Shown here: one piece after another, positions 4,380-55,880 of the stretch
Position numbering within the stretch: position 1 is the first letter of the stretch
Layout: each line of letters opens with the position of its first letter
Assembly: GCA_043813605.1 (NCBI GenBank)
Contig: JBDRKX010000102.1
Location: 1-56,083, forward strand
Origin: Elusimicrobiota bacterium
Lineage (GTDB): Bacteria > CG03 > SLGR01 > JBDRKX01
Length of the DNA: 56,083 nucleotides
Direction of reading: 5' to 3'
Position numbers and translations under genes: made by a program
Notes under the pieces: generated by a model
Databases searched by the model: none
What the model was told of the DNA's origin: nothing
Seen by the model: only the letters and a program-made list of their open reading frames with translations

Positions 4380-4413
4380 CGCTCTTCTATTCCCCTTTTT
4401 CCTCTTCCGGCAT

Positions 4414-4457
4414 AAAAAAAACCCGCACTCTGCTCATTTTTAAACAAAGTGCGGGTT
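4414..4457 (-). terminator. Conserved hairpin + T8, copy A (intrinsic-terminator-like), between small ORF A and giant 3
   Basis: Minus strand reads AACCCGCACT-(18 nt loop)-AGTGCGGGTT followed by TTTTTT: a perfect 10-bp stem and a T8 run in total. The TAA stop of small ORF A (4440-4442) lies in the loop. The giant 3 ATG is 35 nt downstream of the T run. Confidence 0.7.
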
Positions 4458-4976: not shown

Positions 4977-5009
4977 AATAGGTCTTATATATATAGTATA
5001 ATACTTTTT

Positions 5010-5053
5010 TGTGAAATATGTGTGAAATATGTGTGAAATATATGTAAAATTAA
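5010..5053 (-). promoter_or_regulatory. Four tandem 11-bp direct repeats (tgtgaaatatg x2, tgtgaaatata, tgtaaaattaa) upstream of small ORF A
   Basis: Exact 11-bp phasing is read directly from the sequence. On the coding strand each unit contains a -35-like TTCACA/TTTACA. The same motif family occurs at 25270-25321, 54229-54250 and 55859-55880. Confidence 0.55.
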
Positions 5054-14000: not shown

Positions 14001-17000
14001 GGAATATGTATTCCGTTATCTTCCACTATATTGCCGTTTGCATCAACTTTTTGAAGCCTTGGCACATAGAGTATCGACCTTAGATCAGATGTATATTCTT
14101 CAGGGAAATTATTGACTATATTCTCAAGACGCATCTTTTCCGATACAGTGGCGTCTATGACTGTTACCTGACTGTCGCCTTTTGAAACCGTATCGAAATA
14201 GAGTCCCGGGTTTGCCAGAAGTTTCATGGGGCCGATAAGGAGCATCGCCGTGATCAGCGTAGGAGCGCCCCATTTGCCTACTCCGGAGATTATGCCGTTA
14301 AACCTTCTTCCAAGTAACGTTACTGTAAGTATTGATAGGACAGCTACGATAGAACCCATAAGAAGCGGCAATCCCACATTAAACATGTCGCTTCCCCTTA
14401 TGGTTGTATCATATATCTCCCACGGCTGTGAGAGGAGGCCTTTATAATAGAGGGTCCTTATCGCAAGCACCAGGTCGCTCGTAAGTAAGGCTGCTATTAT
14501 GGAAGACGCTGCAAAATTAGCCATAAAGATACTCCCGAAACTGTTGAGTATACGGGATATCCGCGAACCTGCAGTGGGCTTTTCGGGAACGGCTGATGGA
14601 GTTTTAAGAGCTGTCTTTTCTATTGTTTCGTATGCGGATGCGATTTCCCGTACAGGCTGTGCTTCTCTTTCTATTGATCGGTCAGTCTCAAACATTTCTG
14701 CTGGAGTTCTAGGTACATTAACAATATCCATTATTAGTCCGCTATTCCAAAGAGCATCGTCATCCCAGCTCAGTATTTTATATTTTATAAATCCAGCTTC
14801 CCGTAATATTATTTCTGATACCGTTACATCCAAAGTCTTTATTGCCGTATTTCCCCTTCTTACATATACACCTTTTATATTGCCGGCACGGCCATATTTA
14901 GCTAACTCAAAAAGCAGTGTTCTTACACTTTCATTGTTTTGTTTATAATTACCGTCATCCTCTCCACGGCTCTCATTAGTCGGAAATATACCTATTTTCT
15001 CAATACTGATATTATCCAGTCTGTTCATGACTTCAGCGATATCGGTTCCAAAATTATCAGGATATACATGCGCTACCGCATACTCGGTTTTTCCTGTATC
15101 CCTGTTCCTGCCCTGTATCACGATTCCGGTGCAGCTCATGAACCCGCCGGAACCGATCGCTTCGTCTTTTTCAAGAGACCCGAAGATCATTTCAGTATTA
15201 AAAACCAGTCCTGACTGATATATGGTCTTTCCATCCCGCTCTTCACTGTTAAGATGAAGTTCGTGCGCCCCGTCTACGATCGAATATGAGGTTAATCTCT
15301 CTTCGGCAAGTATCGAAACCGCCTTTTCGGCTGCGGCTTTCAATTGGGCGACCCTTTCCGATACTATATCGCCCGAAATCTCTTCCAGAAACAGTGTCTT
15401 ATTCTCTACTGTCTGTTTATATTCTTCAGATCTCAGATATTCCGCAAGCGGAATTTCTCCTATCTTACTGTCTTTTACAATGACATTTTTAAGCAACCCG
15501 TCACTGACCGCGATCCTAAGTACTCTCGGAATTTCCGTGCCTACGACTTTGACTGCTTTGAATCTTGATTTACCCCTGTCTGATGCCAGACTTATAAGAG
15601 ATCTAATATAATTTCTTATAATAGAAGCCAGGCGGGCTTTTCCCGGAGCTTGATATGCAAAATAACCGAACAGATCCGACACCTCGAATGTGTCTTCTGT
15701 TTCAGAAAACCGTATTTCCGCCAGTTCTTCTCCTTCAGCATTGAATATAGTGTTATACTGGGGATTATCAGGTGTGGGCGCATACCTGAATCCGAAAGCA
15801 TCTACTTGAGTATTGATTATTTTTTCATGGGCAGTTATTTTTACCAGTGATTCGTATGCATTGATCCTAGAAAGGACATCTTTACCGTGTATTTTCGTTA
15901 AATACCGGGATATCATCCCGTGCTGGAAGGACCTGTCTGTTTCCCCGATGATACTCTTGAGCATATCCTGCGTCATCGCCGGATCGTTAAGCTGGGCAAC
16001 ATGGTTAGGAGTTATCACTGGAACTGCCGAACCGGGAGTGAACCCAAATCTCAGGACCTGTTCCGCTGACGCGAGTATATGCGCTATCTGCTGGATATCT
16101 TCCGGGGTTTCGCCTGAACCTTTGAGCTGTTCCATCCAAAAAGCTTCCCTCGATTCGTGGAATATGGATTCATCCTGGTATCTGGAACCGGTGACTATGA
16201 CTAAATTGCCGCTGCTGTCCCGGAAATTATGCGCCCAGTATCCTTCAGGAAGTTCATTATCATCTACAACAAGTAACCTGGCTGTTATTTCTTCTCCCTT
16301 AATTACCCTTTTTTCGACTCCGGATGCGCGTTCGGCCCACTCTTTTTCCATAGCCCTGGCCTGGGTTAGTTTAGCCGCATCTTCTGCCGTCCGGACTCCT
16401 ATCCTCTTGAGAGCTCCTACTGAAGCTCCGACAGGAACAGGAGGTAATCCAGATATTGGCGCACGGGCTGCAAACACTTCCTTGTCATCAATCTCGACCG
16501 CCCGGGCGACATCGGCATCATCCAGCACCTGTTCCTCTTCTATTTGTTCCACATGGAATATAAGTACTTCTTTTTCTTCAGCACCCTTATGAAAATATAC
16601 GCCGCTTCCTTTTATCCTGACTAATAGCATATCCTGTTGGCCATACCTGGCAATAACTTTATTCCTTAACGGAGTGCCCGAAAAACAACTCTGTTCATTA
16701 GTTATTCCCCTATTCTCGTTTTTCTGAACCAGCCGTTTTGCTATCTCAAATTCCTCTCTGGTCATCACACGATAGATGGTCGGTACATCTCTGGGGCTGT
16801 TTACTATTTTCTCTGCATATATATCATCCCTCAAATTCTTTAAAATATCTTTTCCGGCAAGCTGCTTTGAAGTATACCTCAGTACTCTGAACAGGGGATC
16901 ATTTATTGTTCTAAAGAATAGGTTTTCGATCAGTTGTTCAGTATCCATTGTAACAATTCCACCGGTTACTCCATTTATCCCCGGAACAGCCGCACTCCAC

Positions 17001-20000
17001 TCAGCTTTAAACATACTCGCTAAGTCCAGTCCCAACTGCTGTTTCATTGCAATTATATACTTGATCTTAGGCAGCATGCTGTTCATCATGTCCATATACG
17101 CCTTAAACCTGCTGCCATCGCCTTTCATCATCTGAGATAAGGCCTGCAAGGCATTTATGTTGCCTGTCTCCTGAAACATCTCAAGCAGTTGATCAAAATC
17201 TTTAGGCATATTCCTGGCCCATTTTTCCATATTTTCGTTAATCGAGGTTGCCTTCTGACTTTCTTCAATATGGTATTCGAGAATAGAATTATACTGTATG
17301 CGGTCCATATCCGGGAGTGAAACCATTTCGCGGGATATTATCTTTGCTTTCTTTGCAGGTTTTCCTGTTTTTCCTGACACAAGAGCTTCAAGCAGCTTTT
17401 CTTCTAACCGTATCTCAGAACCGTCTTTAATTACTGATTCCAACTCTCTGAAATTTATTGATGTAATATCAGAGAACCACATCCTGCCTTCTTTCGGATT
17501 AAAACTAAAAAGATCATCTGCACCCTTCTCTGTAGCGCCCGCATCCATGGTATAACTTCCTGCATCACACATAAAGAAGATTGCCGATAGCTCAAAATAA
17601 GCTGCGGCAGCAATTCCGGCCTTTTGTGCGCCTCTTCTGATAATACTAGCCGCCCGGTCAATTTTCCCGCTGTCTTTCAATACAATACCTATAGATTCTC
17701 CGTCAATCAGATTTTCTGCGACAGCTATCTGGGAACTGCTGTAACCGAGTTTTCCAAGCATTTCCCTCATCATTCGGGCTGTCTCTTCGTGTTCATCCGT
17801 ACCCTCGACGAGAGCCTTAGGTTTACCTATATCATGGAGCGCCAGTATAAGACGGAACAGCCCGGTATCTACACCTGCAGGAAATTCCATGCCTCTAAAA
17901 TATTTCTCAAACTGGCCGAGCAGCATCAGAGTATGTCTTTCCAGCGTATTGTCCCAGGTAACCTGCTCCGAGTATAAGGATTCAACTTCCGGAAAAGCCT
18001 CCTTGAGTGCATTGAGCAGTGATTCGGGAGAAAATTCATCCCCTTCAGCTATTCTTCTGACTTTATCTACAGTTGACATCCCGGCCAAAGGCTTCGGCCT
18101 GACAATTTTGACTTTTGCATTGATTACTGCCTGAACGTAATCCTCATAATCTGCGACCATGTTGAACGCGGCTTCCCCGAGATATTGTTTCACCAGGTCA
18201 TGGTGTTTCTGCCTATCCTGCGGCTTTTCTGATATGATAGCCTGCAGCTGTGAGATCTGCATATCATCGACTTGCTGCTGGTGGAACGGTGTAAGACTGT
18301 TTATCCCCCCATACTTGATTACCTGGTCAGCTGAAGCAAGTATATGAGATTGATGTATAATTTCTTTTGCTCCTTTCAATCCTGCTTCTTTCATTAAATA
18401 AGCTGTCCAGGCTGCTTCCTGTTTTTCATGAAAAACGGCTTCCTGAGCGATATCGGATTCGGGAGGAGCACGGGTAACAACAACCAGAACCTTCCTGTTG
18501 CTTTCTGCATCTACTCCTGTAAAACGCAGGGATTCTATTCCTTCGGGAAGATTTCTATCACTTATTACCCTTATTGTAACCGAAAACGTCCGCTGACTAC
18601 CCTCATGACCAACGGTTATCCTGTCTGAGGATTCCGGAGTTCCTTTTGATTCCCTCATCCACCGGGATTGGTTGTTTTTTATCAAGCCGTCCAGTTTTTT
18701 CTCTTCTTCACCGGTACGTCTACCCATAGTTTTCATGGCATTATCTATGTCATCTATATCCCCATCAGGTTTTTTTGAGAGTAAGGTACCCTTATAGTCT
18801 TCGAGCTCTTTGAACATTCCCTGTGATAAACTGATATCATTTATTCTCACATTATTGATCAGTGTGCTTAAATCAGGTGAATCGTCAAGACTTGTCAGCG
18901 CATTTATTAATGCGTCTAAACTCATATCATCTTCAGTATTAAGCTCGGATAAGAACATATGGAGCCTTGACGCCGGGCTATTGTCAAACTGCCTTGCTTT
19001 TCCTGTATCATTTAATATATTTTCAAATATCTTTTTCAAAGGATGATTATCAGGTATCCTGTTTAATTCAAGGGCTTTCTTCAAAACAGCTGTGCCCGGT
19101 ATAACTACCCCGCCAGCTGCTTTTTCAGCTAATTCTTTTACCCCTTGCATACCGCCTGTTTTGTAAGCATCAATCATCTCGCCAACTGTTGTTTCTAATG
19201 CGTCCCCGACAGACCGTACAGGCTTACCTGCTTCTCTGGCAGCTTCTGTCACTCTTAGATCTCTGACTTCTTCGGGAATCTCATCCAACTGACTAATAAT
19301 CTCTTCATCCGGTGTTTCAGACAATATTTCTTCAGCGGATGGTTTTACTAACTGAAGCGCCTTTGCAACCGCGTCTATTGTCTTGGGGCCTGCTCCTTTA
19401 ATAGGGCTGAGCAGCCCGTTCAATTTTTCGAAACTTGACACTTGGTCAGGAGTTGCTCCAATAAGGGCATTAACCACATCATCTTTAACTGTTCTCTTGA
19501 GTGATTTCGGTAGAGCGGCGCGTATATTCTTTTCAAATTGGTCAGATTTTGGCTCCGCTTTCGCCTTATAAACTCCAACTGTCTTTTGAGTCAGCTGATC
19601 CCGCATTCTGCTTAATCTGGAAAGTGCGCCTATAACTTCGTCTCTGGCCTGGTCCATTCTCCTTATATTGGGAACCATGTTCCGGGCCAGATTGAAATTT
19701 TTTCTTGCAGCAGCCAGATCGTCGTTTTCAAGCGCCTGTTCAGCCTGTTCCAACACGGCGTTAACAGTAGTCAGATTATCTATCTGTGTCTGAGTGAGTA
19801 CAGCTTTCGGGGCCTTTTCAGCTTTTGCAACTTCTATCGTCTCTACAGGCACCGGTTTTTCGCCGGCTCTCACCAGTATCCTGTTAAGCCCCGCCAGATC
19901 TCCATAATCCCGGTCATTAACTGCCTTTTTAAAGGTCGATTTCATGAATCCTTCATGAGCTTTACCGCCCGGCAGCGGATATCCTACGGGATCCAGAATC

Positions 20001-23000
20001 ATGAAATTACTACCGTCTTCCGTTATGTATATGTTATCTTCATGAAAATCACCGTGTACAATGCCCGCTTTGTGCATCGCAATAATAACTTCTTTTAGCC
20101 TGTTCAGGAGTTCTTTCGAGAGCGGTTTGTCGTATTCGCCAAGCGGTACTCCGGCAGCTTTTTTCATATAATAGCCTTCTACCTGCCCGTTCTCTCCGTA
20201 TTTAAAGGCCAGTGGTTCCGCTATATGTTCAGGGAACATCTTGTGCATAGCTTTTAAAGCATCAAACTCAGCTACTATATCCCTGTATGAGTTCCCGAAC
20301 CGGAGGGGTGTTGTCCTCATAGCAGCGGACTTAAAAAAGACATCCGGCCTGTTTTCAAGATCAGCTTCATCTATGGGTACTTTAGCCAGCGCTTCTTCCG
20401 TCTTGGTTCTGGTCTCTCTCAATGCCTGCAGTTTTTCCTCGTTTAAACTGATAGTATTCTTTATCCGGTCTATATCAAAAAGCAGTTTTCTCTTAGCCTC
20501 TTCGTTTTCAACGGCTTTTTTATACTCGGCATCCAGTATCTGAACAGCTTTGTCAAAATTGCGTTTCTTGGCGTTTTTCTTGATCGCCCCGATAATATTA
20601 TCAAGCTCGGTTTGAGCTTTCGCATATTCAAGGGTACCCCGTTTATCCTGGGCGGACAGGATAGGACTATTTTTAGCTCTCCAGTACATGATATATAACT
20701 GGATACTATCTTTATTCAATCCGTCTTCAATCGCCTGCACCTTTTCCAATTCTTCCTCAGCTTTTTTAAGTTCTGCCTCGGAGGTTGCTTTTTCATCTGT
20801 GCTGTTCTTTTCATTTATATCGAGTATCCGGTTGATATTTCCATAAAGTCCGGCTGTAGCAAGCCCGTTCTGTTCAGCCAGGTTATACTGCCCGAGTGCT
20901 GCCTCTGTATTTCCCTGCTTCTCCCAGGAACGGCCCGATCCTAAATGTGCGCGCTGCTTTAATGCGTTCTTCAGATTTTTATCAGCAACCTGATCGGCAA
21001 GCTGGATCGCTTCTTCATATTTTTTCCTTGCGTAGAGGTTATCATCATTCTCAAGAAAAGCATCACCTTCGTTGAGGAGTATTCCAGCCGGATTTTCCGG
21101 ATTCTTGATCAATCCGAGTTCTCCTGATATTGCGCTGATAGGTTTTTTTCCCACACCGATACGCTTAAGTATCCGTTCAAGTTCATTATAACTTGTGACA
21201 GTTCTGCCTTTCAGCGCCTGGATAACCTGGGCTTTCATCTTCTGTTTAAGCCCTTTGTTGTCAAGTTTTCCAGCAAGCTCTTTTTCTACCTTTATATCGT
21301 TCATTATCCTGTCGAGCTGTGCAAGGTACCCGTTGATATTCGATTTATTCCACTGTCTTACCGGTTCAAGGAATTTTTCAAGAGGAACATTAAGGTCAAC
21401 CGGGTTCTTGAGATATTCTTCTATTATCGCCTGCCTGATCCTTGCAGGCATCTTCACAAACTCTTCGGCAGCGGCTATGCCGGCAAATATCTCTTCCAGT
21501 TTTTTTATGAACTGACCGGCATTTTCATATTTACCCTGCATGCGGGCGGCCTGATATATATCGTTTATAATAGACTCTATTACTGATTTAGATATACCGG
21601 CATCACCCAGCGCCTTGCGTATCCTGTCCAGTTCGTTCACTACGGCTTTAGGAACAACAGCCGCCTCTTCTGCGGAAGCTACAGAAGGCTCTAACTTTGA
21701 TCTCACAGATGCTACGGTATTATCGGCTGTACCCGCCGGGATCTCCCGGAGCAGTTCCATAAGGTCGTTAAACCTTTCTTCAAGGACCTTTTCCCTTTCA
21801 TTAAGCTGTTTTGATGTCCTTAATGCATTCCAGGCCTGACCCATTCCGTTCATATATCCGGCATTCTTCGACAGGGTTTCGAGTTCCATCACCAGCTTAT
21901 TCAGCCTGTCAGTGTATTCTTTCTCTGAAACCTGTTTAGGAGCTTCCGCTTCTTCCGTAACCGCTTCTTCACGCGCTGCCGCCGGTATCATTGCTGTTTT
22001 CTGGTCATTCTGCCAGATAAAGAAAAGTGATACGGCGCCGAGTATGGCGATCGAACCGGCTACCATAGGGCCGGACAATATTGCAGCTATTACCGCAGCT
22101 ATACTCACCCCGCCGATAGCTATCGCATACCTGTATTTGTTTATCAGTCCGCTCACTCCAAGGCGCGCCTTAGGCCTGCGGGTTGTCTCGGCAGCGGTTT
22201 CAGGTTCAGCTGTAATACCTGCGACTTCTTTACCGGAAACTAACCGGGCAAACTGTTCATGTTCCTGTTCATTCGGCACGTCCGGCAATCCCCGGCCTTC
22301 TCCCTGTGTATGCTGGGCCTGTATCCTGTTCCTGCTGTCCCGGGCCATACTGATTGATATACCGCCCCGGGCGTCAACAACCTCTTTTTCAGTGTACCCT
22401 TCGAGCGCCTTTATGCGCCAGTCGTTGTTCTCTATAAGACTCCTGAGATACCCGTCCAGGTCCTTTTCGAACATGTCAGCGTCTTCCCGTAACAGATAAG
22501 AGTTCTTGAGCTTTTTCAGTGTCTCTTCGGTATTGTATACAAAATGGGTATTGCCGACTGATACCAGTTTCAGAACACCGATCATCTGCCTGTTAAGGCT
22601 TTCGAGCCATCCATTGAATGCCGCGATATCTACCTGACCTTTTTCAGAGGAAACCTGAGCCATGGGATAAAGACCGGTTATAGCCTTTTTAACATTAAGG
22701 AAATTCTTTATCCGGAGACTGAGTTTGTAAGGATTGTTCTTGAGTGTATTTATGCCTGCGGCGACCCTGTTCCATCTTGCCTTGTGTATTATCGCCTTTG
22801 CTTCCTCTTCAGGTACTATCTTGATCTTACCCGAACGGTTTATACCCAGCATAACGAGTTTTCCGGCCAGATTCATGTAAGTGTATGCGTATCCGTCCTG
22901 GAACACCTTGTCTTCCGGGTAGAAATTATACTTTTCTCCCGCTGTCTTTAAACTGATATACCCTTTGCTCCATTCACGGCCAAAAGCCATTACTCTGTCA

Positions 23001-24652
23001 AGTAAAGTGACATTGAAACCCGATTGCTTGAGCTGATCCCGCATCGCTTTTCCTATTTCCCTTATGACGATCCTGTCAAGGAACCAGTCCTGGCCCAGGA
23101 AGAAGGATATGAGCGCAAGCGTCTGAGGAAGTACATCCTCATAACTCAGCACCGTATCACCGCGCATGAGCTGGTAATACCTTTTTGTCACCGTCTCATC
23201 ATGAGATGTGACCCTGGGCGCCACTATCGTATAATTGATAGCTTTTTCTTTCAGATGCCTTGCAACACCTTCCGAATGGAATCCTCCGGTTACCATCACG
23301 ATGTTCTTGTCCCGCCTGGAACGCTTTATAACGAAATTATCGACAAACCTCACATCCCTCTCGCATGCCATTGAATAAAAAACGCCCATTTCCTCGATAT
23401 AGGGTTTCAATGCAGACAAAAGGTCGTCTATACCGCCCATCTCCTCGTTATTTTTGAACATAAGCGCATTATAGGACCTTTCAAACTCATCTGCCCCTTC
23501 ATAGAACACATCCAGTTCTTCCCGTGTTATCTGGTTGAGAAGGAATTTTATCAGCGTCTGCACATAGTCAAGCACGTATACAAGGTCTTTTTCCGCCTGA
23601 TTCCCGCAAAGCCCGCTACAGACGGTCTTTATCACTTTATCTTCTTCAGTGAGCAATTTGTTCGTGTTTATCTGTTTGGAAAGCTCGATATTGTCGAAAA
23701 AACCGGCAAGTGTCGAATAATTCCTGTCCAGACGGGCTTTCTCATATATCTTTTCACGCCTGGATGTTGGAGTAGAAGACATGTGTTTCATTATCCTGAC
23801 TGTACCCGTATCCCCGGAATCTTTCTCATAATCCAGGTAGTTCAGAGTCTTCATAAGGTTGTCGTATTCTTTTACGATCTTCTCATCATCCAGGTCATGC
23901 CTGTTTTCAGTGAGTTTCATGAATTTGGCGTATTCGGTCGAAATACTGTTTATGGATTTTCCGGTCCGGTCAGCCCACTCTTTAAGGTACTTCAAGAAGA
24001 CATGAGGGCTGAGATTTCTCTGTTTATAAAGTATGTAATGGCTCCTGAATTTTTTGAGGTCGTTTGAGAATACCCTGTCTTCTACCATTTTCAGCAGGTA
24101 TTTTATCCTCTGAAGGTATTCCACTACCTGTTCGCGGTTGTTCAGTGATGAGAGAAGGACATCGCGGTTTTTGTCGTAGAGCTCACTGTCTTCTATACCA
24201 TAAACAGGAGGAGAGTTCTTTTTAAGCGCAGCAAACCCCTCTGCACCCTTTATCAGGCCGTTTTTCATGAAGAAATCGACTGATTCCTCCTTGCGGCTTG
24301 CGTTCGGTATAGACGATACTATGGAAAAATCTATCTTCTTGTCACTGGGACTGCCTTCAAGGCCTATTTTGCTGATACCGTAATTTGTGTCTATGTGCTC
24401 GAGTATACCGCTGATGTTTTTTTGTACTTCGAAATTCGCATGCAGGTCCTGAATAAGTATCACCATCGGGTATTTGTCACCGGCATTGAACCTTTCAACA
24501 ACCTGACCGCATTCAAACGGTACATCTATCTCATCTGAAGTTTCTATCTCTATACGGGCATAGGCATAATCATTCAGCACGAATACGGTCAAAAAGGATG
24601 TGACCAGTATCCAGCTCGTTATTTTAGTGATTATGTTGTCTAAAATCTTCAT
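5060..24652 (-). CDS. Giant multi-domain membrane protein 2 (6,530 aa), carrying many unrelated enzyme-like domains
   Basis: Uninterrupted 19,593-nt ORF with an N-terminal hydrophobic anchor (ITSWILVTSFLTVFVL). Several internal TM clusters and recognisable catalytic motifs are listed as separate features. The TAA stop (5060-5062) overlaps by 1 nt an upstream in-frame ATG of the small ORF A frame. Confidence 0.9.
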   Translation of the reverse strand: MKILDNIITKITSWILVTSFLTVFVLNDYAYARIEIETSDEIDVPFECGQVVERFNAGDKYPMVILIQDLHANFEVQKNISGILEHIDTNYGISKIGLEGSPSDKKIDFSIVSSIPNASRKEESVDFFMKNGLIKGAEGFAALKKNSPPVYGIEDSELYDKNRDVLLSSLNNREQVVEYLQRIKYLLKMVEDRVFSNDLKKFRSHYILYKQRNLSPHVFLKYLKEWADRTGKSINSISTEYAKFMKLTENRHDLDDEKIVKEYDNLMKTLNYLDYEKDSGDTGTVRIMKHMSSTPTSRREKIYEKARLDRNYSTLAGFFDNIELSKQINTNKLLTEEDKVIKTVCSGLCGNQAEKDLVYVLDYVQTLIKFLLNQITREELDVFYEGADEFERSYNALMFKNNEEMGGIDDLLSALKPYIEEMGVFYSMACERDVRFVDNFVIKRSRRDKNIVMVTGGFHSEGVARHLKEKAINYTIVAPRVTSHDETVTKRYYQLMRGDTVLSYEDVLPQTLALISFFLGQDWFLDRIVIREIGKAMRDQLKQSGFNVTLLDRVMAFGREWSKGYISLKTAGEKYNFYPEDKVFQDGYAYTYMNLAGKLVMLGINRSGKIKIVPEEEAKAIIHKARWNRVAAGINTLKNNPYKLSLRIKNFLNVKKAITGLYPMAQVSSEKGQVDIAAFNGWLESLNRQMIGVLKLVSVGNTHFVYNTEETLKKLKNSYLLREDADMFEKDLDGYLRSLIENNDWRIKALEGYTEKEVVDARGGISISMARDSRNRIQAQHTQGEGRGLPDVPNEQEHEQFARLVSGKEVAGITAEPETAAETTRRPKARLGVSGLINKYRYAIAIGGVSIAAVIAAILSGPMVAGSIAILGAVSLFFIWQNDQKTAMIPAAAREEAVTEEAEAPKQVSEKEYTDRLNKLVMELETLSKNAGYMNGMGQAWNALRTSKQLNEREKVLEERFNDLMELLREIPAGTADNTVASVRSKLEPSVASAEEAAVVPKAVVNELDRIRKALGDAGISKSVIESIINDIYQAARMQGKYENAGQFIKKLEEIFAGIAAAEEFVKMPARIRQAIIEEYLKNPVDLNVPLEKFLEPVRQWNKSNINGYLAQLDRIMNDIKVEKELAGKLDNKGLKQKMKAQVIQALKGRTVTSYNELERILKRIGVGKKPISAISGELGLIKNPENPAGILLNEGDAFLENDDNLYARKKYEEAIQLADQVADKNLKNALKQRAHLGSGRSWEKQGNTEAALGQYNLAEQNGLATAGLYGNINRILDINEKNSTDEKATSEAELKKAEEELEKVQAIEDGLNKDSIQLYIMYWRAKNSPILSAQDKRGTLEYAKAQTELDNIIGAIKKNAKKRNFDKAVQILDAEYKKAVENEEAKRKLLFDIDRIKNTISLNEEKLQALRETRTKTEEALAKVPIDEADLENRPDVFFKSAAMRTTPLRFGNSYRDIVAEFDALKAMHKMFPEHIAEPLAFKYGENGQVEGYYMKKAAGVPLGEYDKPLSKELLNRLKEVIIAMHKAGIVHGDFHEDNIYITEDGSNFMILDPVGYPLPGGKAHEGFMKSTFKKAVNDRDYGDLAGLNRILVRAGEKPVPVETIEVAKAEKAPKAVLTQTQIDNLTTVNAVLEQAEQALENDDLAAARKNFNLARNMVPNIRRMDQARDEVIGALSRLSRMRDQLTQKTVGVYKAKAEPKSDQFEKNIRAALPKSLKRTVKDDVVNALIGATPDQVSSFEKLNGLLSPIKGAGPKTIDAVAKALQLVKPSAEEILSETPDEEIISQLDEIPEEVRDLRVTEAAREAGKPVRSVGDALETTVGEMIDAYKTGGMQGVKELAEKAAGGVVIPGTAVLKKALELNRIPDNHPLKKIFENILNDTGKARQFDNSPASRLHMFLSELNTEDDMSLDALINALTSLDDSPDLSTLINNVRINDISLSQGMFKELEDYKGTLLSKKPDGDIDDIDNAMKTMGRRTGEEEKKLDGLIKNNQSRWMRESKGTPESSDRITVGHEGSQRTFSVTIRVISDRNLPEGIESLRFTGVDAESNRKVLVVVTRAPPESDIAQEAVFHEKQEAAWTAYLMKEAGLKGAKEIIHQSHILASADQVIKYGGINSLTPFHQQQVDDMQISQLQAIISEKPQDRQKHHDLVKQYLGEAAFNMVADYEDYVQAVINAKVKIVRPKPLAGMSTVDKVRRIAEGDEFSPESLLNALKEAFPEVESLYSEQVTWDNTLERHTLMLLGQFEKYFRGMEFPAGVDTGLFRLILALHDIGKPKALVEGTDEHEETARMMREMLGKLGYSSSQIAVAENLIDGESIGIVLKDSGKIDRAASIIRRGAQKAGIAAAAYFELSAIFFMCDAGSYTMDAGATEKGADDLFSFNPKEGRMWFSDITSINFRELESVIKDGSEIRLEEKLLEALVSGKTGKPAKKAKIISREMVSLPDMDRIQYNSILEYHIEESQKATSINENMEKWARNMPKDFDQLLEMFQETGNINALQALSQMMKGDGSRFKAYMDMMNSMLPKIKYIIAMKQQLGLDLASMFKAEWSAAVPGINGVTGGIVTMDTEQLIENLFFRTINDPLFRVLRYTSKQLAGKDILKNLRDDIYAEKIVNSPRDVPTIYRVMTREEFEIAKRLVQKNENRGITNEQSCFSGTPLRNKVIARYGQQDMLLVRIKGSGVYFHKGAEEKEVLIFHVEQIEEEQVLDDADVARAVEIDDKEVFAARAPISGLPPVPVGASVGALKRIGVRTAEDAAKLTQARAMEKEWAERASGVEKRVIKGEEITARLLVVDDNELPEGYWAHNFRDSSGNLVIVTGSRYQDESIFHESREAFWMEQLKGSGETPEDIQQIAHILASAEQVLRFGFTPGSAVPVITPNHVAQLNDPAMTQDMLKSIIGETDRSFQHGMISRYLTKIHGKDVLSRINAYESLVKITAHEKIINTQVDAFGFRYAPTPDNPQYNTIFNAEGEELAEIRFSETEDTFEVSDLFGYFAYQAPGKARLASIIRNYIRSLISLASDRGKSRFKAVKVVGTEIPRVLRIAVSDGLLKNVIVKDSKIGEIPLAEYLRSEEYKQTVENKTLFLEEISGDIVSERVAQLKAAAEKAVSILAEERLTSYSIVDGAHELHLNSEERDGKTIYQSGLVFNTEMIFGSLEKDEAIGSGGFMSCTGIVIQGRNRDTGKTEYAVAHVYPDNFGTDIAEVMNRLDNISIEKIGIFPTNESRGEDDGNYKQNNESVRTLLFELAKYGRAGNIKGVYVRRGNTAIKTLDVTVSEIILREAGFIKYKILSWDDDALWNSGLIMDIVNVPRTPAEMFETDRSIEREAQPVREIASAYETIEKTALKTPSAVPEKPTAGSRISRILNSFGSIFMANFAASSIIAALLTSDLVLAIRTLYYKGLLSQPWEIYDTTIRGSDMFNVGLPLLMGSIVAVLSILTVTLLGRRFNGIISGVGKWGAPTLITAMLLIGPMKLLANPGLYFDTVSKGDSQVTVIDATVSEKMRLENIVNNFPEEYTSDLRSILYVPRLQKVDANGNIVEDNGIHIPVHIHQIIRSLSARDLGSKDEFYECTIRHEIGHNVFWNVLTDTQKQAWIELSGRSKDMNDFVSNYAKTNYNEDFAETFMYFTTEPLGFASMAIGSDILLEKLMLMANLMIKDGVLKVYDRNGNFKEAKVSLVDGKLTSENLFEALTGVFYDEEMEGTERIDSKEVAHLEVEAGRTEAKASADVSAVSGRVVNLSDSPDTFTIDNTKPTYILVHGASDYTPETMKHIVDTARALGVNIVEFSYYWLNPIDDISGKFNRELAAFIESKGIENVTIVLHSYGTNVIRNAVLNDESGLYRNASVVELTPTIGGNESAANTSGGFRQALMKIISALGFRDYSNVSAVQDYNGTIQTRLFSKEAVSEFAGKIAGLKQVFIRGDSFNPDANSDARYQQLFNNGLGDNVVYLAPTTDDPHMEVLERDDVMNTIFKGITPTARIGSILNQITAPLGYNELMATRPELVGLTNGMTKPEYEKLQADKEIQKAMKEIVEFMYSVDPERAQELLGHAKHFVILDIPFQAMAFYEAGIIIIGKNHLENIRQDRSFAANVILVLAHEAKHIEDYNIGIMGDHSTLRVRAMEEERAYIETVTWMKKLAALGYGTQEEVDVQQFVTDHIKDNNYTGIVARMVTVDPSEDPETVVMKVIALADAAGYLAEIMGVSVDDLEFAAARVCTGGQPGEGMKLITSAVIFTEFTSKGVLHFATITKDGDVTVSTEQVGILEHVSRILDEDYSFENRQIFINSLIELAKTDKNAFGLLDNVRSGLTGIMDKLRGLNDEDSRYEYNAAERLLGILNEAMSEIRNALAPGEWSDAGAVGVISGIITALRRRREEEEKEPVTPDNEMRAFLSELGIEDKYHKDILANYKNINELRERAHIIQDIIDALQSATGIPDFTLSEWGQSSLQSTLLRRNDILSSGIQKGFEPAVFLNTMLLDLPNLTEPEIAGIRYLSSLLDVTRLRYNWKKGNNKWTFQAGINRGHDKAYRMENAMEIPDFLAVQEDLLSEDGTNLIPVIMNMIFDHVFDMNAGNIFGPIDFKAEKGSPDSRPAFFMFNETMYRDGDGNIVTDEYGRVRGRWPRRDPRITLIVTSEQRAILEPLIAEMFLGPVELREGKPFGVHHIVDFMVLDEGDIANLGRNVSITMHDGKVEVNEKTFDLSDNRPFDYDLGEWEAEPVSMPDKGMIAVPIGVGSFGRTTGAALNTSMYVAIRNADGSLTKILIDPHAEADRVLQARGLPTDVDYIIISHNHPDHIEGMLSGAQRGVQVIVEQGMVRKSMETILEQASKKSKLMTGQDLRKNVIFAEMNEDGKTIELPGGTKVILQMVEHSIPTAAIRIEAPKNVGGGVFVMASDIYNAETGILEEITIDDKGEEKVVLKKEKATDIVDFLFVGVDKLFIDAKKGDPVHQDVAKLVKAAGAHYGRTTDDITKNMLGIHYQDENDRQMTGLEPVSVGEVVKIGDPVFNGKAPVDSLVLANALENGYLNPIQKRQIRNLLKGKRGIFGRKSIEKSYKGEKLITQETIINKAFFIRKGSVRIIDEKTGKEIAIAGPGDIVGLSALSEKGVETNATVIAMTNIEYTPVYPGDLTKNVKKILLNTWKNQKHIADSTLFRSLPDNIRTLIASLVMEDSFQPGEDIIKENTTGDFIYILVEGSAQVLKKDEAGEDKYVANVELNDYFGEIALLNQDAVRTATVRAGSEGARIIAIHRGYFDAIYRKYPLVKSVIARTMQDRRIVVSEPAAETAPVKKAGILKPAVVAGLGIFAGILTFLGNVGTSVAAEIVMRGSQVLAVVKPGNSLWRIARQYLEGIGIDSPTNQQIANFVKEIISNNPKVALNPELIQPGQELLMKTVEPVKQAVQTIIDTAGPVAEPLKEQVVGKLTAAVPENLDLVVRDAAENVISAAQSIVEPSGLDNLITMMQTFVNSNYVWLAGAFALVIAGIIALGVWRNYRARKEAVKPAEEPVVSEKREVTEEEMGLPEMLAEMGMKADVIESLLASMSPEDRTGFRQQISSIIEVIEKSSDSDAARALTVRSLNLAVDNPRILPVLGKFFNLAATTPSINEDLIKHLGNLGAVFAFNKTQTGLEINPYIHEVIANTIEIPGVLGTLNTIANIINEYMSEERKPINLSDINNFFAELVGLDNLMNIGAKVLSTGITITDNIGPLVELDAIIELDGNIYIVEIKNADIKRFNNYVVKGTSAKYISKIAKIEKALVSEAGFSQLAGFIGKANVDKIVSQPVNILLAIPQQTALRGLNEDERSLDNVKEVFSGKDKRPIHSIISRLYRLSPEALVWLKGIIGDGVDTAISEWLRTFTNKSPPDIGMLRLPQTYQTVDAKEPIEYKHPYEFSFFISPQFDIFSTYNTDSVADRIISPREIEDIAPKAPAPVAEAAPEEKIPEIGSTRMTPGEIDAAIEEIRNIPLLDSNGNVMRDNIILKLEKYGQLGADMLKDIDGLNAQEFTDYDTEFVRSAAVALRVDIDEKDFVSIEGLAGILSVIAGKAAELIVFNGLVVSEFDPARTVDTGSAMDRLAGVDLPVVSEGNHIGDWKAGMTAFQENFTRYEEVYRQVLRPALFNQLSRMSQIDSGRLQERFHMSAENWAEFVYDFTLAFNFSGIYTGDTVNEPVLLSAFAGVYHGYTGSYTRDYHNWVDDMVKMGVSDRDAMRIVDEMAQEASVEKTRAFDTSAGDFAVKWDEMAAREPAVTTTGGNIWQRLISSVKRIPENFSEKSLLAAQLGIEELRTGEKTSYADGVLTINQATYRKIIELLDRSKDMNITVNVLRAMIAGYSSQNLHLTEYLEDYMEELAPHMTDIEAIALPIWFNTVFSFNKVKAGEEEISQFVALVMNLPEGQEMPEKALRIIEEVGRINMKFLGQKQIEDVPTSAGMVEVTEEKTLELKLKSGVRQLVMAISRLGKAVVTMPVTIVEMGLSGNKRWDAVAAAAFMGGGRVSILDLLDRHMRILTGRQLEPDESIIPNLNKVAGVFTAT
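5063..5790 (-). other. C-terminal ~230-aa domain shared with giant 1
   Basis: Giant 2 vs giant 1: GVLTINQATYRKIIELL vs GKLTVRSDIYEAIQEL; EAIALPIWFNTV vs EKIVLPVWFSWV; ALRIIEEVGRINMKFLGQ vs LGEVIETAERINEGFLGE; AVAAAAFMGGGRVSILDLLDRHM vs NTIAAYAFGNGGSIIDQLKASM; ESIIPNLNKV vs NDIVPNNLIESV. Confidence 0.65.
8476..8665 (-). other. LysM-like domain in a loop bounded by TM helices (TMs at about 8700-8785 and 8180-8250)
   Basis: LAVVKPGNSLWRIARQYLEGIGIDSPTNQQIANFVKEIISNNPKVALNPELIQPGQELLM fits the LysM pattern (V.pGdtLw.IA..y ... N ... l.pGq.L). Flanking TMs are AVVAGLGIFAGILTFLGNVG and YVWLAGAFALVIAGIIALGVW. Confidence 0.5.
8866..9200 (-). other. Cyclic-nucleotide-binding (CAP/cNMP) domain 2
   Basis: FQPGEDIIKENTTGDFIYILVEGSAQVLKKD...YFGEIALLNQDAVRTATVRAGSEGARIIAI carries the canonical FGE[IL]ALL ... 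RTATV.A signature. Confidence 0.75.
9262..9545 (-). other. Cyclic-nucleotide-binding-like domain 1 (more divergent)
   Basis: YKGEKLITQETIINKAFFIRKGSVRIIDEKTGKEIAIAGPGDIVGLSALSEKGVETNATVIAMTNIEY has the same beta-roll layout (G.GD.vG..AL ... atviA.t). Confidence 0.55.
9720..10480 (-). other. Metallo-beta-lactamase-fold domain
   Basis: KILIDPHAEADRVLQARGLPTDVDYIIISHNHPDHIEGML; the HxHxDH motif is encoded at 10262-10279. Confidence 0.7.
12300..12420 (-). other. Second HExxH zincin-like motif
   Basis: ANVILVLAHEAKHIEDYNIGIMGDHSTLRVRAMEEERAY: HEAKH with downstream acidic residues. A single motif only. Confidence 0.35.
12990..13420 (-). other. Alpha/beta-hydrolase (lipase/esterase-like) domain
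   Basis: KPTYILVHGASDYTPETMKHIV...ENVTIVLHSYGTNVIRNAVL...VELTPTIGGNE. The nucleophile-elbow-like HSYGT Ser codon is at 13172-13174. Confidence 0.55.
13760..13960 (-). other. Zinc metallopeptidase-like domain (HExxH + EDFAE)
   Basis: ECTIRHEIGHNVFWNVL (HEIGH encoded at 13904-13918) and NYNEDFAETFMYF (13769-13792). This pairing is typical of small zincin families. Confidence 0.6.
16040..16300 (-). other. Unassigned module, copy 2 (LPEG...IVTG...FHExxEAxW...AHILASAEQV)
   Basis: ITARLLVVDDNELPEGYWAHNFRDSSGNLVIVTGSRYQDESIFHESREAFWMEQL...IAHILASAEQVLRFG is paralogous to 18290-18620. Confidence 0.5.
16545..16790 (-). other. Possible ADP-ribosyltransferase-like R-S-E region
   Basis: TIYRVMTREEF ... 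SCFSGTPL ... GAEEKEVLIF spaced about 30 and 37 aa apart. This resembles the Arg / S-x-S / ExE[VIL]L layout of R-S-E ARTs. Weak, motif only. Confidence 0.25.
17550..17950 (-). other. HD-domain phosphohydrolase-like region
   Basis: LERHTLMLLGQFEKYF...LFRLILALHDIGKPKALVEGTDEHEETARMMREML...FFMCDAGS. The HD codons are at 17831-17836. Confidence 0.6.
18290..18620 (-). other. Unassigned module, copy 1 (LPEG...VVTR...FHExxEAxW...SHILASADQV)
   Basis: VTIRVISDRNLPEGIESLRFTGVDAESNRKVLVVVTRAPPESDIAQEAVFHEKQEAAWTAYL...HQSHILASADQVIKYG. Confidence 0.5.
19965..20345 (-). other. Protein-kinase-like (RIO/Kdo/APH-type) domain
   Basis: AMHKAGIVHGDFHEDNIYITEDGSNFMILDPVG: HGDxxxxN catalytic loop (HGD at 20048-20056) plus a DP metal-binding position. 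The N-lobe is poorly recognisable. Confidence 0.5.
23030..24652 (-). other. N-terminal module shared with giant 3
   Basis: See the alignment given for feature 2750..4379. Confidence 0.7.
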
Positions 24653-24660
24653 TTATTCAT

Positions 24661-24704
24661 AAAAAAAACCCGCACTCTGCTCATCTCTAAACAAAGTGCG
24701 GGTT
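24661..24704 (-). terminator. Conserved hairpin + T8, copy B, between small ORF B and giant 2
   Basis: Same 10-bp stem as copy A (AACCCGCACT / AGTGCGGGTT); the loop differs at 2 nt. The TAG stop of small ORF B (24687-24689) lies in the loop. The T8 run ends only 8 nt before the giant 2 ATG (24652). Confidence 0.7.
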
Positions 24705-25241
24705 AATTACTCGGGCATTAGATGCCCGCCCGTACATCAAAATTGGATTTATATCATACTTATCTGCCAGATTTTGGATACATTTATCCACAGGTGTGAT
24801 AAACTTAAGCCGCCATCTGGAATAATACTGAAAATCATCATCGGGAGGCCTGCACCTCCGTTTCAGATAGTCGGTAAAACTCTTTAAACAAACACTGACT
24901 GCAGCCAGTATCCCTATCAAAAAGACAAGGAACATTGACTCTTTGGAAGCAAAAAGCGCTCCACCCATGATAAGGAAAAGGAAATTGAATATTTTTCTCG
25001 AATCCTTATCGTTTGAATCTCCCGCTCTATTACTCGTTTCCTGTACACTGCCGGTAGCGGCTCCTTTGACACATCCATTGACTTCCATAACAGCGATCGA
25101 CGGATAATTCAGCGCGGTTTTCAGCAGTGAAACCGCTCCGGTAATGTTCTTCTGGATCTGAAAAGTCCCCAGAGAGGTGAAAGACAGTATTACCAATACA
25201 GTCAGTATCGACAGTATTTGTCTTTTGTTAGAGTTTTTCAT
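24687..25241 (-). CDS. Small three-TM membrane protein, paralogue B
   Basis: 184 aa with an N-terminal TM (ILSILTVLVILSFTSLG) and two central TMs. Conserved tail: QYYSRWRLKFITPVDKCIQNLADKYDINPILMYGRASNARVINPHFV. Confidence 0.8.
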   Translation of the reverse strand: MKNSNKRQILSILTVLVILSFTSLGTFQIQKNITGAVSLLKTALNYPSIAVMEVNGCVKGAATGSVQETSNRAGDSNDKDSRKIFNFLFLIMGGALFASKESMFLVFLIGILAAVSVCLKSFTDYLKRRCRPPDDDFQYYSRWRLKFITPVDKCIQNLADKYDINPILMYGRASNARVINPHFV

Positions 25242-25269
25242 TATATACTCTTTTCTATTAAAAGTATAC

Positions 25270-25321
25270 TGTGAAATTGTGAAAAATTTGAGTACGGAAT
25301 GTAAAATGTTTGTAAAATATT
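25270..25321 (-). promoter_or_regulatory. Phased direct repeats tgtgaaat / tgtgaaaaatt / tgagtacggaa / tgtaaaatgtt / tgtaaaatatt upstream of small ORF B
   Basis: 11-bp register read directly from the sequence. Lies 29-80 nt upstream of the ATG at 25241. Confidence 0.5.
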
Positions 25322-53513: not shown

Positions 53514-54158
53514 TTATACCGCCTTTGTGTATAACTTACTTTCTTCTATACTCATAAAAAAAACCCGCATTCCGAATACTTCATTCAAAATGCGGGTTCC
53601 TTTCCCCCGAAAACCTTTTACGCGCGCTATATCAAATTCGTTTACACGGCTTTTCAGATACCTGTCCCATGGCGTCAAAAACTTCAGTATCCAGCTCGTG
53701 TAATACATTATGCCGGCCCGTATACGGCCCGGCATATAACAATCCCTGTCATATGCCTTTTTCCGTATAAGCGTTGTGCCGAAAGTAAAGACTGCAACCA
53801 TAAGAAGAAAAAACAGCTCCCTGTTCGTCATCAGCACTGCACTCAGTACGTAGTAGAGATGCCCGAACAATCCCCTGCCGGCCTTTTTCCTGACAGGTAC
53901 CGATTTGGTATTTGATTTTTCTTCTTCAGAACTTATCTTTACTTCTCTAAAAAATTCTTCAGATTCAGTAAAAATCGTCAGGTACGGAAACAGTATCTTT
54001 GTTTTAAAAAAAGAAACTGTGCATTCTATCATGTCAAATTGTATAGCAGCAACAGTTTCTATTGTTTCGGATATCTGGAAAGTGCTCATAAAAGTACAGA
54101 GACATATTGTAATAATTATGAGATGTGATATTAACTTTATTTTAATTAAATTACGCAT
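53514..54158 (-). CDS. Small three-TM membrane protein, paralogue C
   Basis: 214 aa with N-terminal TM LISHLIIITICLCTFMSTF and central TMs. Conserved motif: MYYTSWILKFLTPWDRYLKSRVNEFD. The TAA stop lies 3 nt before the giant 1 ATG. The ORF reads through hairpin copy C. Confidence 0.75.
   Translation of the reverse strand: MRNLIKIKLISHLIIITICLCTFMSTFQISETIETVAAIQFDMIECTVSFFKTKILFPYLTIFTESEEFFREVKISSEEEKSNTKSVPVRKKAGRGLFGHLYYVLSAVLMTNRELFFLLMVAVFTFGTTLIRKKAYDRDCYMPGRIRAGIMYYTSWILKFLTPWDRYLKSRVNEFDIARVKGFRGKGTRILNEVFGMRVFFMSIEESKLYTKAV
53556..53598 (-). terminator. Conserved hairpin + T8, copy C, 46 nt upstream of the giant 1 ATG and inside small ORF C
   Basis: Minus strand reads AACCCGCAT-(19 nt)-ATGCGGGTT followed by TTTTTT: a 9-bp stem whose closing end differs from the A/B stem on both arms while pairing is kept. 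It is translated as ...TRILNEVFGMRVFFM... in ORF C. Confidence 0.5.
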
Positions 54159-54191
54159 AATATAATATGTATATTATCCTTTTCCAATAAT

Positions 54192-54200
54192 ATTATACCA
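54192..54200 (-). promoter_or_regulatory. Candidate extended -10 element (TGGTATAAT) for the small ORF C / giant 1 unit
   Basis: The reverse complement of attatacca is TGGTATAAT, 34 nt upstream of the ATG at 54158. The context is AT-rich, so chance matches are likely. Confidence 0.3.
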
Positions 54201-54228
54201 TATAATAATGAAATTATGCTGACTATTA

Positions 54229-54250
54229 TGTAAATTTTCTGTAAAATATC
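54229..54250 (-). promoter_or_regulatory. Two phased 11-bp repeats (tgtaaattttc, tgtaaaatatc) upstream of small ORF C
   Basis: Read directly from the sequence. The array abuts the stop codon of the receiver gene. Confidence 0.45.
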
Positions 54251-54251
54251 T

Positions 54252-54662
54252 TCAGTTTACCAATGGGTTAAAACTCGTGTTTTCGTCATAGTTGTCTTCT
54301 ATAAGGGACCTCAGATTCATGAGTGAAAAAGGTTTTACTATATATTCTTTAGCACCAAGAAGAAAAGCTTCATTAAGGCTCTTTTTCTCATCGACTACAG
54401 TTAATATGAAGATAGGAATATCTTTTGTACTGTAATCACTTTTAAGTTTTTTCAGGATCTCGAATCCCGTCATTCCAGGCATGTTAAGATCAAGAGTTAT
54501 TATTGAGGGCTTACATCTGAAGGCCTTGTCTATCCCGTCTTTTCCAGTTGTCGCTATTTCAACTTCGTACCCTTTCAGTTCAAGGCCGTCTTTTATCATC
54601 TCGGCAATATAAATGTCGTCATCAATTACCAAGACTTTTCTTTTTGCGCTTTTTGCGCACAT
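54252..54662 (-). CDS. Stand-alone response-regulator receiver (CheY-like) protein
   Basis: KVLVIDDDIYIAEMI...PSIITLDLNMPGMTGFEIL...IPIFILTVVDEK...GAKEYIVKPF: the acidic pocket DD, the phospho-acceptor Asp, and the conserved Thr and Lys are all present. There is no output domain (136 aa). Confidence 0.9.
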   Translation of the reverse strand: MCAKSAKRKVLVIDDDIYIAEMIKDGLELKGYEVEIATTGKDGIDKAFRCKPSIITLDLNMPGMTGFEILKKLKSDYSTKDIPIFILTVVDEKKSLNEAFLLGAKEYIVKPFSLMNLRSLIEDNYDENTSFNPLVN

Positions 54663-54693
54663 TTCCCCGTCCTTTTTCCTTGTTTGGCGGCGC

Positions 54694-55809
54694 CTAAAGT
54701 TCTATACCATAGGTTTTGTAAATATCGAGCAGTTCGTCCATTTCCGGCCTGCGGTTAAAGTAAAAATCCAATTTGCTCATACCGTGTGAATAGAGCTGGA
54801 ATTTCCCTTCAGGTTCGACCCATAGGCCTACCATTTTTCCTTCATGATAGAACCACTCGTTTACGAGTTCTCCTTCATAAGTTGTATATACAGGTTTTCC
54901 GTTATCATACCAGGTTACCTGACCGGTTATCACATCTTCGGAAAATATCAGTTTTGAACCCTGCCATTTGTACAATTTGGTAACAGTGCCGTTCTCGTCG
55001 ATCTCTTTCTGTTGTTTCCCGTCCGTGTAGAGTGTCACGTTACCCTGCTTATCTTTAACCGATTCTATCTGATAATAACCGTTCTCATCTTTCTTGTACG
55101 TATAAGTGGCAAGCAGTTCCCCGTCTTCAGTTACGGTCTGTATCCTGTTGCCTTTCTTATCGAAACTGGTCACATTACCGTATGCATCTGTCCTGGTTAC
55201 CAGTATACCTTTTAAATCGTATCTGTATGTTGCGATCTTGTTCCCCTCATAATCAAGATCATAACCGGCTTTTCCCTGTTCATCATATTTTACTTTTGCC
55301 TGCGTCAGCTCATCTACAACCCACTGTACATTTTTTCCATATTTGTCGTACTCAAAAGTCTTTGTGATATTTAGGTCTTCGTCATATTCCGCTACCGTTT
55401 TACCGCCAAGCCCCTGTTCCATATATCCGACCTTTTCATCATACTCATTTGTCACCTCTATCATATTGGAACCAGCCTGTCTTTTCCATTTCTTGTCAAT
55501 TTGCCCCTGCATATTCCTCTCATGAGATTTTCGACCGTGTATGGAAAAAGCCTTGTTCCCGTCCTTGTCGACACTGACCATAACATCTCCCTTTGATGTA
55601 ACATATGTTTTGTTTCCGTTTTTATCCGTTATAACAAGAGGTCTGAGAGGGTTTGTATCTATTATCTGTTTTGCCGGCTTGAAGAGCTGTCCATCGGGCC
55701 TGAAAACTTTAGTCGGGTAGTATGAATACGGATCTATTCTCGCTATTCCGTCACACGCTAATAGCGATATATAATACAGCGCTAATAATAATGAAAATAT
55801 TCTTTTCAT
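54694..55809 (-). CDS. YD-repeat lipoprotein
   Basis: Signal peptide with lipobox MKRIFSLLLALYYISLLAC|DG. YD-type repeats: EYDEDLNITKTFEYDKYGKNV, KYDEQGKAGYDLDYEGNKIATYRYDLKG, DAYGNVTSFDKKGNRIQ, KDKQGNVTLY. GGAG lies 4 nt upstream of the ATG. Confidence 0.85.
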   Translation of the reverse strand: MKRIFSLLLALYYISLLACDGIARIDPYSYYPTKVFRPDGQLFKPAKQIIDTNPLRPLVITDKNGNKTYVTSKGDVMVSVDKDGNKAFSIHGRKSHERNMQGQIDKKWKRQAGSNMIEVTNEYDEKVGYMEQGLGGKTVAEYDEDLNITKTFEYDKYGKNVQWVVDELTQAKVKYDEQGKAGYDLDYEGNKIATYRYDLKGILVTRTDAYGNVTSFDKKGNRIQTVTEDGELLATYTYKKDENGYYQIESVKDKQGNVTLYTDGKQQKEIDENGTVTKLYKWQGSKLIFSEDVITGQVTWYDNGKPVYTTYEGELVNEWFYHEGKMVGLWVEPEGKFQLYSHGMSKLDFYFNRRPEMDELLDIYKTYGIEL

Positions 55810-55858
55810 AACTCCATTAATAATTTACTACATTTCTATGAAAAGCATGAGAAAAGAT

Positions 55859-55880
55859 TGTAAAATATATGTAAAATCCA
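55859..55880 (-). promoter_or_regulatory. Two phased 11-bp repeats (tgtaaaatata, tgtaaaatcca) upstream of the YD lipoprotein gene
   Basis: Read directly from the sequence, 50-71 nt upstream of the ATG at 55809. Confidence 0.45.

Follow-up and report, generated by a model that had tools for sequence, protein, structure and literature searches.

Three small paralogous genes, each standing directly before a very long one, end in or shortly after a hairpin that is followed by a run of Ts, and the homologous nucleotides of that hairpin are decoded in different reading frames from one gene to the next. Which is being conserved, the peptide or the nucleic acid, and what would such a structure be doing at the entrance to a giant gene? 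How single bacterial genes of 20-100 kb are transcribed and translated without premature termination is an open question, and in a limited search of the giant-gene literature the word "terminator" was absent and no upstream module of small ORF and hairpin was described. The hairpin is a conserved, sequence-defined and putative control point before such genes.

The three junctions and their relatives

The window is the whole stretch of DNA that was analysed, 56,083 nucleotides making up contig C102 of an Elusimicrobiota assembly of 2.84 Mb in 132 contigs that is 93% complete. Its small ORFs are all on the minus strand and belong to one orphan family of membrane proteins: ORF C (53514-54158, 214 aa), ORF B (24687-25241, 184 aa) and ORF A (4440-4976), for which the ATG at 4976 is the likely start and whose frame is open to 5060, where it overlaps the stop of the second giant gene. 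Behind them, on the same strand, are giant gene 1 (25539-53510, 9,323 codons, ATG at 53510), giant gene 2 (5060-24652, 6,530 codons), which has an N-terminal domain common to other giants, and giant gene 3 (3-4379), which runs off the window after more than 1,459 codons. The hairpin with its T8 occupies 53556-53598 at junction C (stem-loop 53562-53598, T8 53556-53563), within the last 25 codons of ORF C, whose tail crosses both; 24661-24704 at junction B; and 4414-4457 at junction A, the minus strand being the sense strand in each case. On the plus strand 53556-53598 reads A8, then CCCGCAT...ATGCGGGTT, with these coordinates exact; the minus, sense strand at this junction is AACCCGCAT-loop-ATGCGGGTT, then T8, then ATG.

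The small ORFs have no Pfam family, a word-based homologue search with them returned the query itself only, and a protein atlas gave no usable match. A profile of the family (A4) recovered 129 representatives among 1.84 billion proteins. The genome as a whole is rich in giant genes, with 18 ORFs of more than 3,000 codons amounting to 538 kb, or about 19% of the assembly. The longest complete one has 32,333 codons (C47:18111-115112), and many of the contigs with giant ORFs, which include C47, C100, C13, C43, C131, C49 and C111, are one end-to-end open frame.

Junctions were sampled independently of the hairpin. The N-terminal domain of the giants was aligned (A2) and searched for in 26 genomes of the phylum, seven of which, all of one order, have it, and every small ORF that precedes such a giant gene was found to have a hairpin and T-run between the two. 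A metagenome scan with the same domain gave only four loci, one of them informative, and three extra junctions came from metagenome and assembly look-ups. The total sample is 24 DNA junctions from seven genomes of the order plus metagenomes, of which 21 were tabulated for frame and stop; 22 hairpins were aligned (A3).

In the genome of the window there are 10 copies of the hairpin, seven of the strict pattern and three variants. All 10 are at the 3′ end of a paralogue of the small ORFs, and a giant gene, of up to 32,333 codons, comes next in eight. A covariance model built from the 22 hairpins found 10 sense-strand matches in this genome, and in the order it had matches in seven of 14 genomes, only those carrying the giant N-terminal domain. 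A dispersed palindrome of the REP or MITE type was considered and rejected, as the sense-strand matches are not in varied intergenic contexts but at small-ORF junctions in all 10 cases. A further paralogue of ORF C, 76% identical, lies at C125:1-700 with a hairpin that is near-identical (one loop difference); it ends at the contig edge, and another cassette is probably concealed in the assembly gap.

Reading frames and base pairing

ORFs A and B read the 5′ arm as AAC CCG CAC TTT GTT (N-P-H-F-V) and then stop in the loop, at TAA in A and TAG in B. In ORF C it is read ACC CGC ATT, and the frame then stays open (...GMRVFFMSIEESKLYTKAV) over the 3′ arm and the T8 to a stop 3 nt before the giant ATG, the peptide over the hairpin being T-R-I-L-N-E-V-F-G-M-R-V-F-F. 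The original prediction took this as homologous nucleotides decoded in different frames, and the wider sample bears it out, since the 24 junctions use all three frames and leave one copy untranslated. The CCCG core is in phase 2 (xxC CCG, giving N-P-H/R/D-F) in 11 of the 21 tabulated junctions, in phase 1 (xCC CGx, T-R-T/A/I-L) in five and in phase 0 (CCC Gxx, P-A/V-L/F) in the other five, including C13_1, in which the stop is 3 nt before the arm and the hairpin is untranslated. The tails of the family representatives show signatures of the three frames in the proportions 35/25/17 (77 of the 129 were classifiable), a split that is heuristic because it is based on peptides and not on DNA.

The frame changes arise because the linker between YDINP, the last conserved protein motif, and the hairpin, 26-54 nt long with all residues modulo 3 represented, differs in length between copies by amounts not divisible by three. 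Upstream of the linker conservation is of the protein type, the YDINP block having an entropy of 0.65 at the first codon position, 0.70 at the second and 1.40 at the third. In the hairpin arms and T-run there are runs of invariant bases instead, with no three-base periodicity. A sequencing indel in ORF C, with the true end of the gene upstream of the hairpin, would have been a trivial source of the frame difference. It is ruled out, as the same frame (xTRILNxxFGxRVFF) recurs in the C125 paralogue and in relatives of 33-40% overall identity. The frame independence is also a caution to annotators that the C-terminal 10-30 residues of the family are by-products of an RNA signal rather than a functional peptide.

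Across the 22-sequence alignment standard pairs occupy 89% of cells, compared with 32-52% when each position is given slid partners. Double changes are present in 11 of 17 pairs (43 cells), counts that overstate the number of independent events, all of the sequences being paralogues or relatives of one another; the slid-partner control retains that relatedness and is still clear, and in 500 shuffles not one attained any of the five measures used. The arms vary together as CAC/GTG, CAT/ATG, CGC/GCG, CGT/ACG, GTGT/ACAC, GGAT/ATCC and CCCCGTAC/GTACGGGG. These statistics are, if anything, slightly conservative, because the row for G002_C42 is shifted by two columns and its perfect 12-bp stem was scored as unpaired. 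There are 40 G.U cells compared with nine A.C cells, an imbalance which indicates that the structure is selected on the sense RNA and not on the antisense strand or on duplex DNA.

The earlier proposal that selection acts on nucleic acid structure and not on the peptide is thus well supported by the use of three frames, the compensatory changes, the G.U excess and the lack of codon periodicity in the arms. When covariation and codon-level conservation are set against each other at homologous junctions, as was suggested at the outset, the pairs with double changes are in the stem and the codon signal is in YDINP, with none in the arms; no homologue was found that keeps the peptide and has lost the stem. 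One implication of that first description did not hold. It had implicitly taken a stop in the loop as the usual arrangement, and this is a derived minority, with read-through of the ORF C kind being the rule.

Terminator anatomy, stop positions and promoters

The three hairpins of the window have predicted folding energies of -33.2, -27.1 and -28.4 kcal/mol (copies A, B and C; z -6.8 to -7.0), and none of 200 shuffles folds as well. For copy C the minus strand folds at -28.4 kcal/mol and the plus strand at only -16.9. The exact hairpin pattern occurs once in the window and in none of 100 shuffles. Stems are 17-23 bp long with a G+C-rich base, (A)ACCCG-NNN / NNN-CGGGT(T), a variable and G.U-rich upper part, and a tail of U7-9. 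The two hallmarks of an intrinsic terminator are therefore both present: a G+C-rich stem-loop in the sense RNA, evident from fold z, covariation and the G.U excess, and a run rich in U immediately 3′ of it, which is T7-T9 in most copies of the 24-junction sample and weaker in G005_C24 and G002_C42. Columns 46-48 of the alignment, where the T-run starts, are invariant and the remainder stays T-rich. A strict scan of the genome (stem of at least 7 bp, at least seven Ts in eight) returned only 57 sites that resemble terminators, and of these the junction hairpins rank with the strongest. That 53556-53598 and its kin are RNA-level hairpins of the terminator type, independent of frame, is held with high confidence.

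The sequence of the stem is canonical and not unique. Its exact pattern has 41 matches in public genomes, nearly all of them ordinary terminators of unrelated bacteria (for instance Colwellia and Flavobacterium), and a match in Omnitrophota is likewise unrelated, so the idea that conservation of primary sequence alone implies a specific binding factor was dropped. The curated covariance models of Rfam 15 (riboswitch, T-box, ANTAR target and others) gave no relevant match at seven loci with E up to 1.

The small ORF crosses both arms and the U-run in 17 of the 21 junctions. Its stop is then most often 4 nt into the next gene, in an ATGA overlap (10 copies), or 1 nt in (two copies); one copy ends 10 nt in, and four others fall short of the next ATG, by 1, 3, 11 and 31 nt respectively. 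A loop stop is found in three (A, B and C47b), and a stop before the arm in C13_1 only, which is also the sole copy followed not by a coupled gene but by a fresh promoter-like region of ATTTCAC repeats and TATACT. As in attenuators with a leader ORF, the ORF overlaps the terminator or ends within reach of a ribosome in the 21 junctions, and three further loci agree. From the end of the hairpin to the giant ATG there are 12-67 nt in the 20 junctions that have a coupled gene and 10-72 nt in the three further loci; where the gap between T-run and ATG is short it has no Shine-Dalgarno sequence.

In the loop-stop copies an ATG after the T8 opens a mini-ORF (24649-24660 and 4388-4413 in the window; the region of C47:115112). 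Those of B (ATG AAT AAA TGA, MNK) and C47b (MYFKQK) end in an ATGA overlap with the giant start and that of A (MPEEEKGE) ends 7 nt before the giant ATG; these mini-ORFs may be a relay for reinitiation.

Each small ORF, and the YD lipoprotein gene, is preceded by ATTTTAC/ATTTCAC repeats and then TATACT or TATAAT (minus strand, 4990-5050, 25265-25318, 54200-54245 and 55850-55877 in the window), an arrangement that makes up 21 clusters in the genome. In relatives, giant genes that have no small ORF have a region of ATTTYAC repeats directly upstream, and the clusters are probably the promoter or operator of the cassettes. No such cluster separates any small ORF from the giant gene behind it, and at 10-72 nt the gap appears too short to hold a promoter. 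Taken together, the short gap and the lack of a motif cluster suggest that transcription of the giant gene must read through the hairpin, though an internal promoter of another type may lie between the two.

Function and alternatives

The arrangement invites the following reading. A cassette would comprise a promoter, a gene for a membrane protein of about 190 aa, the hairpin and U-run within or at the end of its coding sequence, and a giant gene, and transcription from the small-gene promoter would get to the giant gene only by passing the terminator. The hairpin would be kept from forming, and read-through allowed, by a ribosome that translates the small ORF close behind the polymerase; the same ribosome would stop at or next to the giant ATG, usually at an ATGA overlap, and could reinitiate there. 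The polymerase would thus enter a gene of 20-97 kb with a ribosome behind it, and transcripts that are not translated would terminate before the giant gene. Were termination routine, 17 of the 21 small ORFs would be left without a stop codon in the terminated RNA. That looks maladaptive, and it suggests that the ribosome on the small ORF prevents the hairpin and is then coupled to translation of the giant gene. On this evidence we consider it moderately probable that the hairpin is an intrinsic terminator embedded in coding sequence and acting as a ribosome-gated attenuator, keeping in mind that the pattern of stop positions could also reflect selection for translational coupling alone.

More tentatively, and as a possibility that we would not rate as the likely outcome, the hairpin may be a coupling checkpoint for giant genes, such that only a polymerase followed by a ribosome passes and that ribosome is handed to the giant start via the ATGA overlap. 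If so, ribosomes would cover every transcript of a 20-97 kb gene from the first codon on and protect it against Rho, and the lineage would have a general solution for giant-gene expression with a real membrane protein as the leader.

The main rival is a constitutive, partial terminator that acts independently of ribosomes. Polymerase would outrun the ribosomes, most transcripts would stop at the U-run and a small, constant share would pass, keeping giant mRNA rare, and the ORF would drift over the hairpin in any frame because nothing forbids it. The anatomy is canonical and strong, and the same stem is an ordinary terminator in unrelated bacteria. Sense strands in this genome are purine-rich (55.6% overall, 57.2% in giant genes) and rho is present, a combination of purine-rich genes and rho that has been linked to runaway transcription, with ribosomes lagging behind polymerase (PMC13323073). 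Runaway transcription, if it applies here, could count against the gate, as a lagging ribosome could not shield the hairpin. Against a constitutive terminator, the RNAs that it released would carry the stopless small ORFs just mentioned, the ATGA overlaps imply that passage of ribosomes over the hairpin is intended, and C13_1, alone in ending a transcription unit, has its stop before the hairpin. A terminator of this constitutive sort seems to us unlikely. A tmRNA would bear on the fate of non-stop transcripts; neither ARAGORN nor the Rfam model at its cut-off detected one in this 93%-complete draft, and no conclusion is drawn from that.

It is improbable that the hairpin is not primarily a terminator at all but an element of RNA processing or stability, such as a site for a double-strand RNase or a 3′-end protector, or a brake on the ribosome as it finishes the small ORF, perhaps to time insertion into the membrane or transfer to the giant start. 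The length of the stem, greater than in most terminators, and its location inside coding sequence would suit such roles. However, neither role needs the U-run, which is among the most conserved parts, and the most conserved pairing is the G+C-rich base adjoining it, as expected for termination.

Slightly less credible again is a terminator overridden by a dedicated protein factor, either an RNA-binding antiterminator, perhaps acting via the neighbouring receiver, or a specialised NusG paralogue of the kind that serves long polysaccharide and polyketide operons. In its favour, families share the sequence of the stem base, ACCCG/CGGGT, and a receiver-only response regulator is upstream of cassette C and of related cassettes. 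Yet cassettes A and B have no adjoining regulator, the receivers neighbouring cassettes have no output domain and no ANTAR or other RNA-binding domain, the Rfam models found nothing, and there is a single NusG homologue, in an open frame of 404 codons, in the 93%-complete assembly. Very improbable is an element acting as DNA (a recombination or cassette boundary, or a cruciform), or a conserved NPHF peptide with the frame of ORF C a frameshift artefact: the repeat does mark cassette boundaries and NPHF-like tails are the commonest class, but the G.U pairs are strongly strand-asymmetric, the minus strand is the one that folds well, three frames are in use, and the frame of ORF C is kept both in C125 and in distant relatives.

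Attenuators controlled by ribosomes are a known kind of element. In the E. coli pyrBI leader the ORF pyrL runs through an intrinsic terminator that precedes the regulated gene, and a ribosome close behind the polymerase blocks the hairpin so that transcription continues; the 44-codon peptide lacks a role of its own, and UTP-dependent pausing provides the signal. The cassettes resemble pyrBI in that an ORF crosses an intrinsic terminator just before the downstream gene. They differ in that the putative leader encodes a conserved membrane protein of about 190 aa and usually ends in an ATGA overlap, that the genes behind the hairpin have 4,000-32,000 codons, and that no metabolite signal is evident. 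The intercistronic rph-pyrE attenuator of E. coli, with the associated effect of the rph-1 frameshift, has a full-length gene as its leader, and translation must reach the terminator region for transcription to continue downstream. A full-length protein gene would be the leader here also; the rph stop, though, is just before the hairpin, in contrast to the cassettes, which have theirs in the loop or, in most copies, past the U-run.

Other precedents concern the influence of the ribosome on terminators more generally. Li et al. 2016 (PMC4824070) report, from a synthetic reporter system in E. coli, that a terminator within a few bp of a stop codon, or towards the end of a coding region, is repressed by the ribosome in vivo; the arrangement considered here is natural and conserved, in an uncultivated lineage. 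Another report has ribosomes preventing the formation of terminator hairpins when coupling is tight (PMC5021804). In the microcin C operon an intrinsic terminator reported to be influenced by the ribosome (PMC4231749) stands between the small ORF mccA and the downstream genes starting with mccB, where it sets the ratio of short to long transcripts. The short mccA transcript carries a complete ORF and is the main product, unlike most short transcripts of the present cassettes, which would lack a stop codon. Unusual here are the location of a terminator inside the tail of a real and conserved membrane-protein gene, the ATGA coupling of that small ORF to a giant gene, and the span of the arrangement over an order-level clade. 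The natural series of frame variants, along with the compensatory stem variants, makes the proposed gating by the hairpin directly testable with reporters.

A second G+C hairpin is present about 10 nt upstream of the terminator at some junctions (4458-4495 and 24705-24740 on the minus strand of the window; also C47, C111, C79, C13 and G001), with stems that vary as GGGCAT/ATGCCC, GGGGTA/TACCCC, GGCCC/GGGCC and GGCTC/GAGCC. A conserved CGGG before it could pair with the CCCG of the terminator as an antiterminator. No claim is made for either, as z is only -0.5 to -2.1 for the copies of this genome and G001 (+1.4 for W_C), the mean over 21 junctions is -0.62 compared with -0.2 to -0.34 for control windows, and the upstream hairpin is absent from several relatives.

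The neighbourhood of cassette C is itself partly conserved. The order of a YD/RHS-like lipoprotein gene, a receiver-only response regulator, the small ORF and the giant gene (53514-55809 in the window) is kept in G002 (L090, 717-3019), and its receiver, small ORF and giant gene part is shared by L088 (1697-3073) and by the P0007 contig. One cassette, at C111:29760-30400 (L072), has a small ORF that looks degraded, with 89 codons from the first ATG and a TGG codon of the YGW motif in the homologous frame changed to TAG; its hairpin and ATGA overlap are intact, and the giant gene behind them has more than 9,900 codons.
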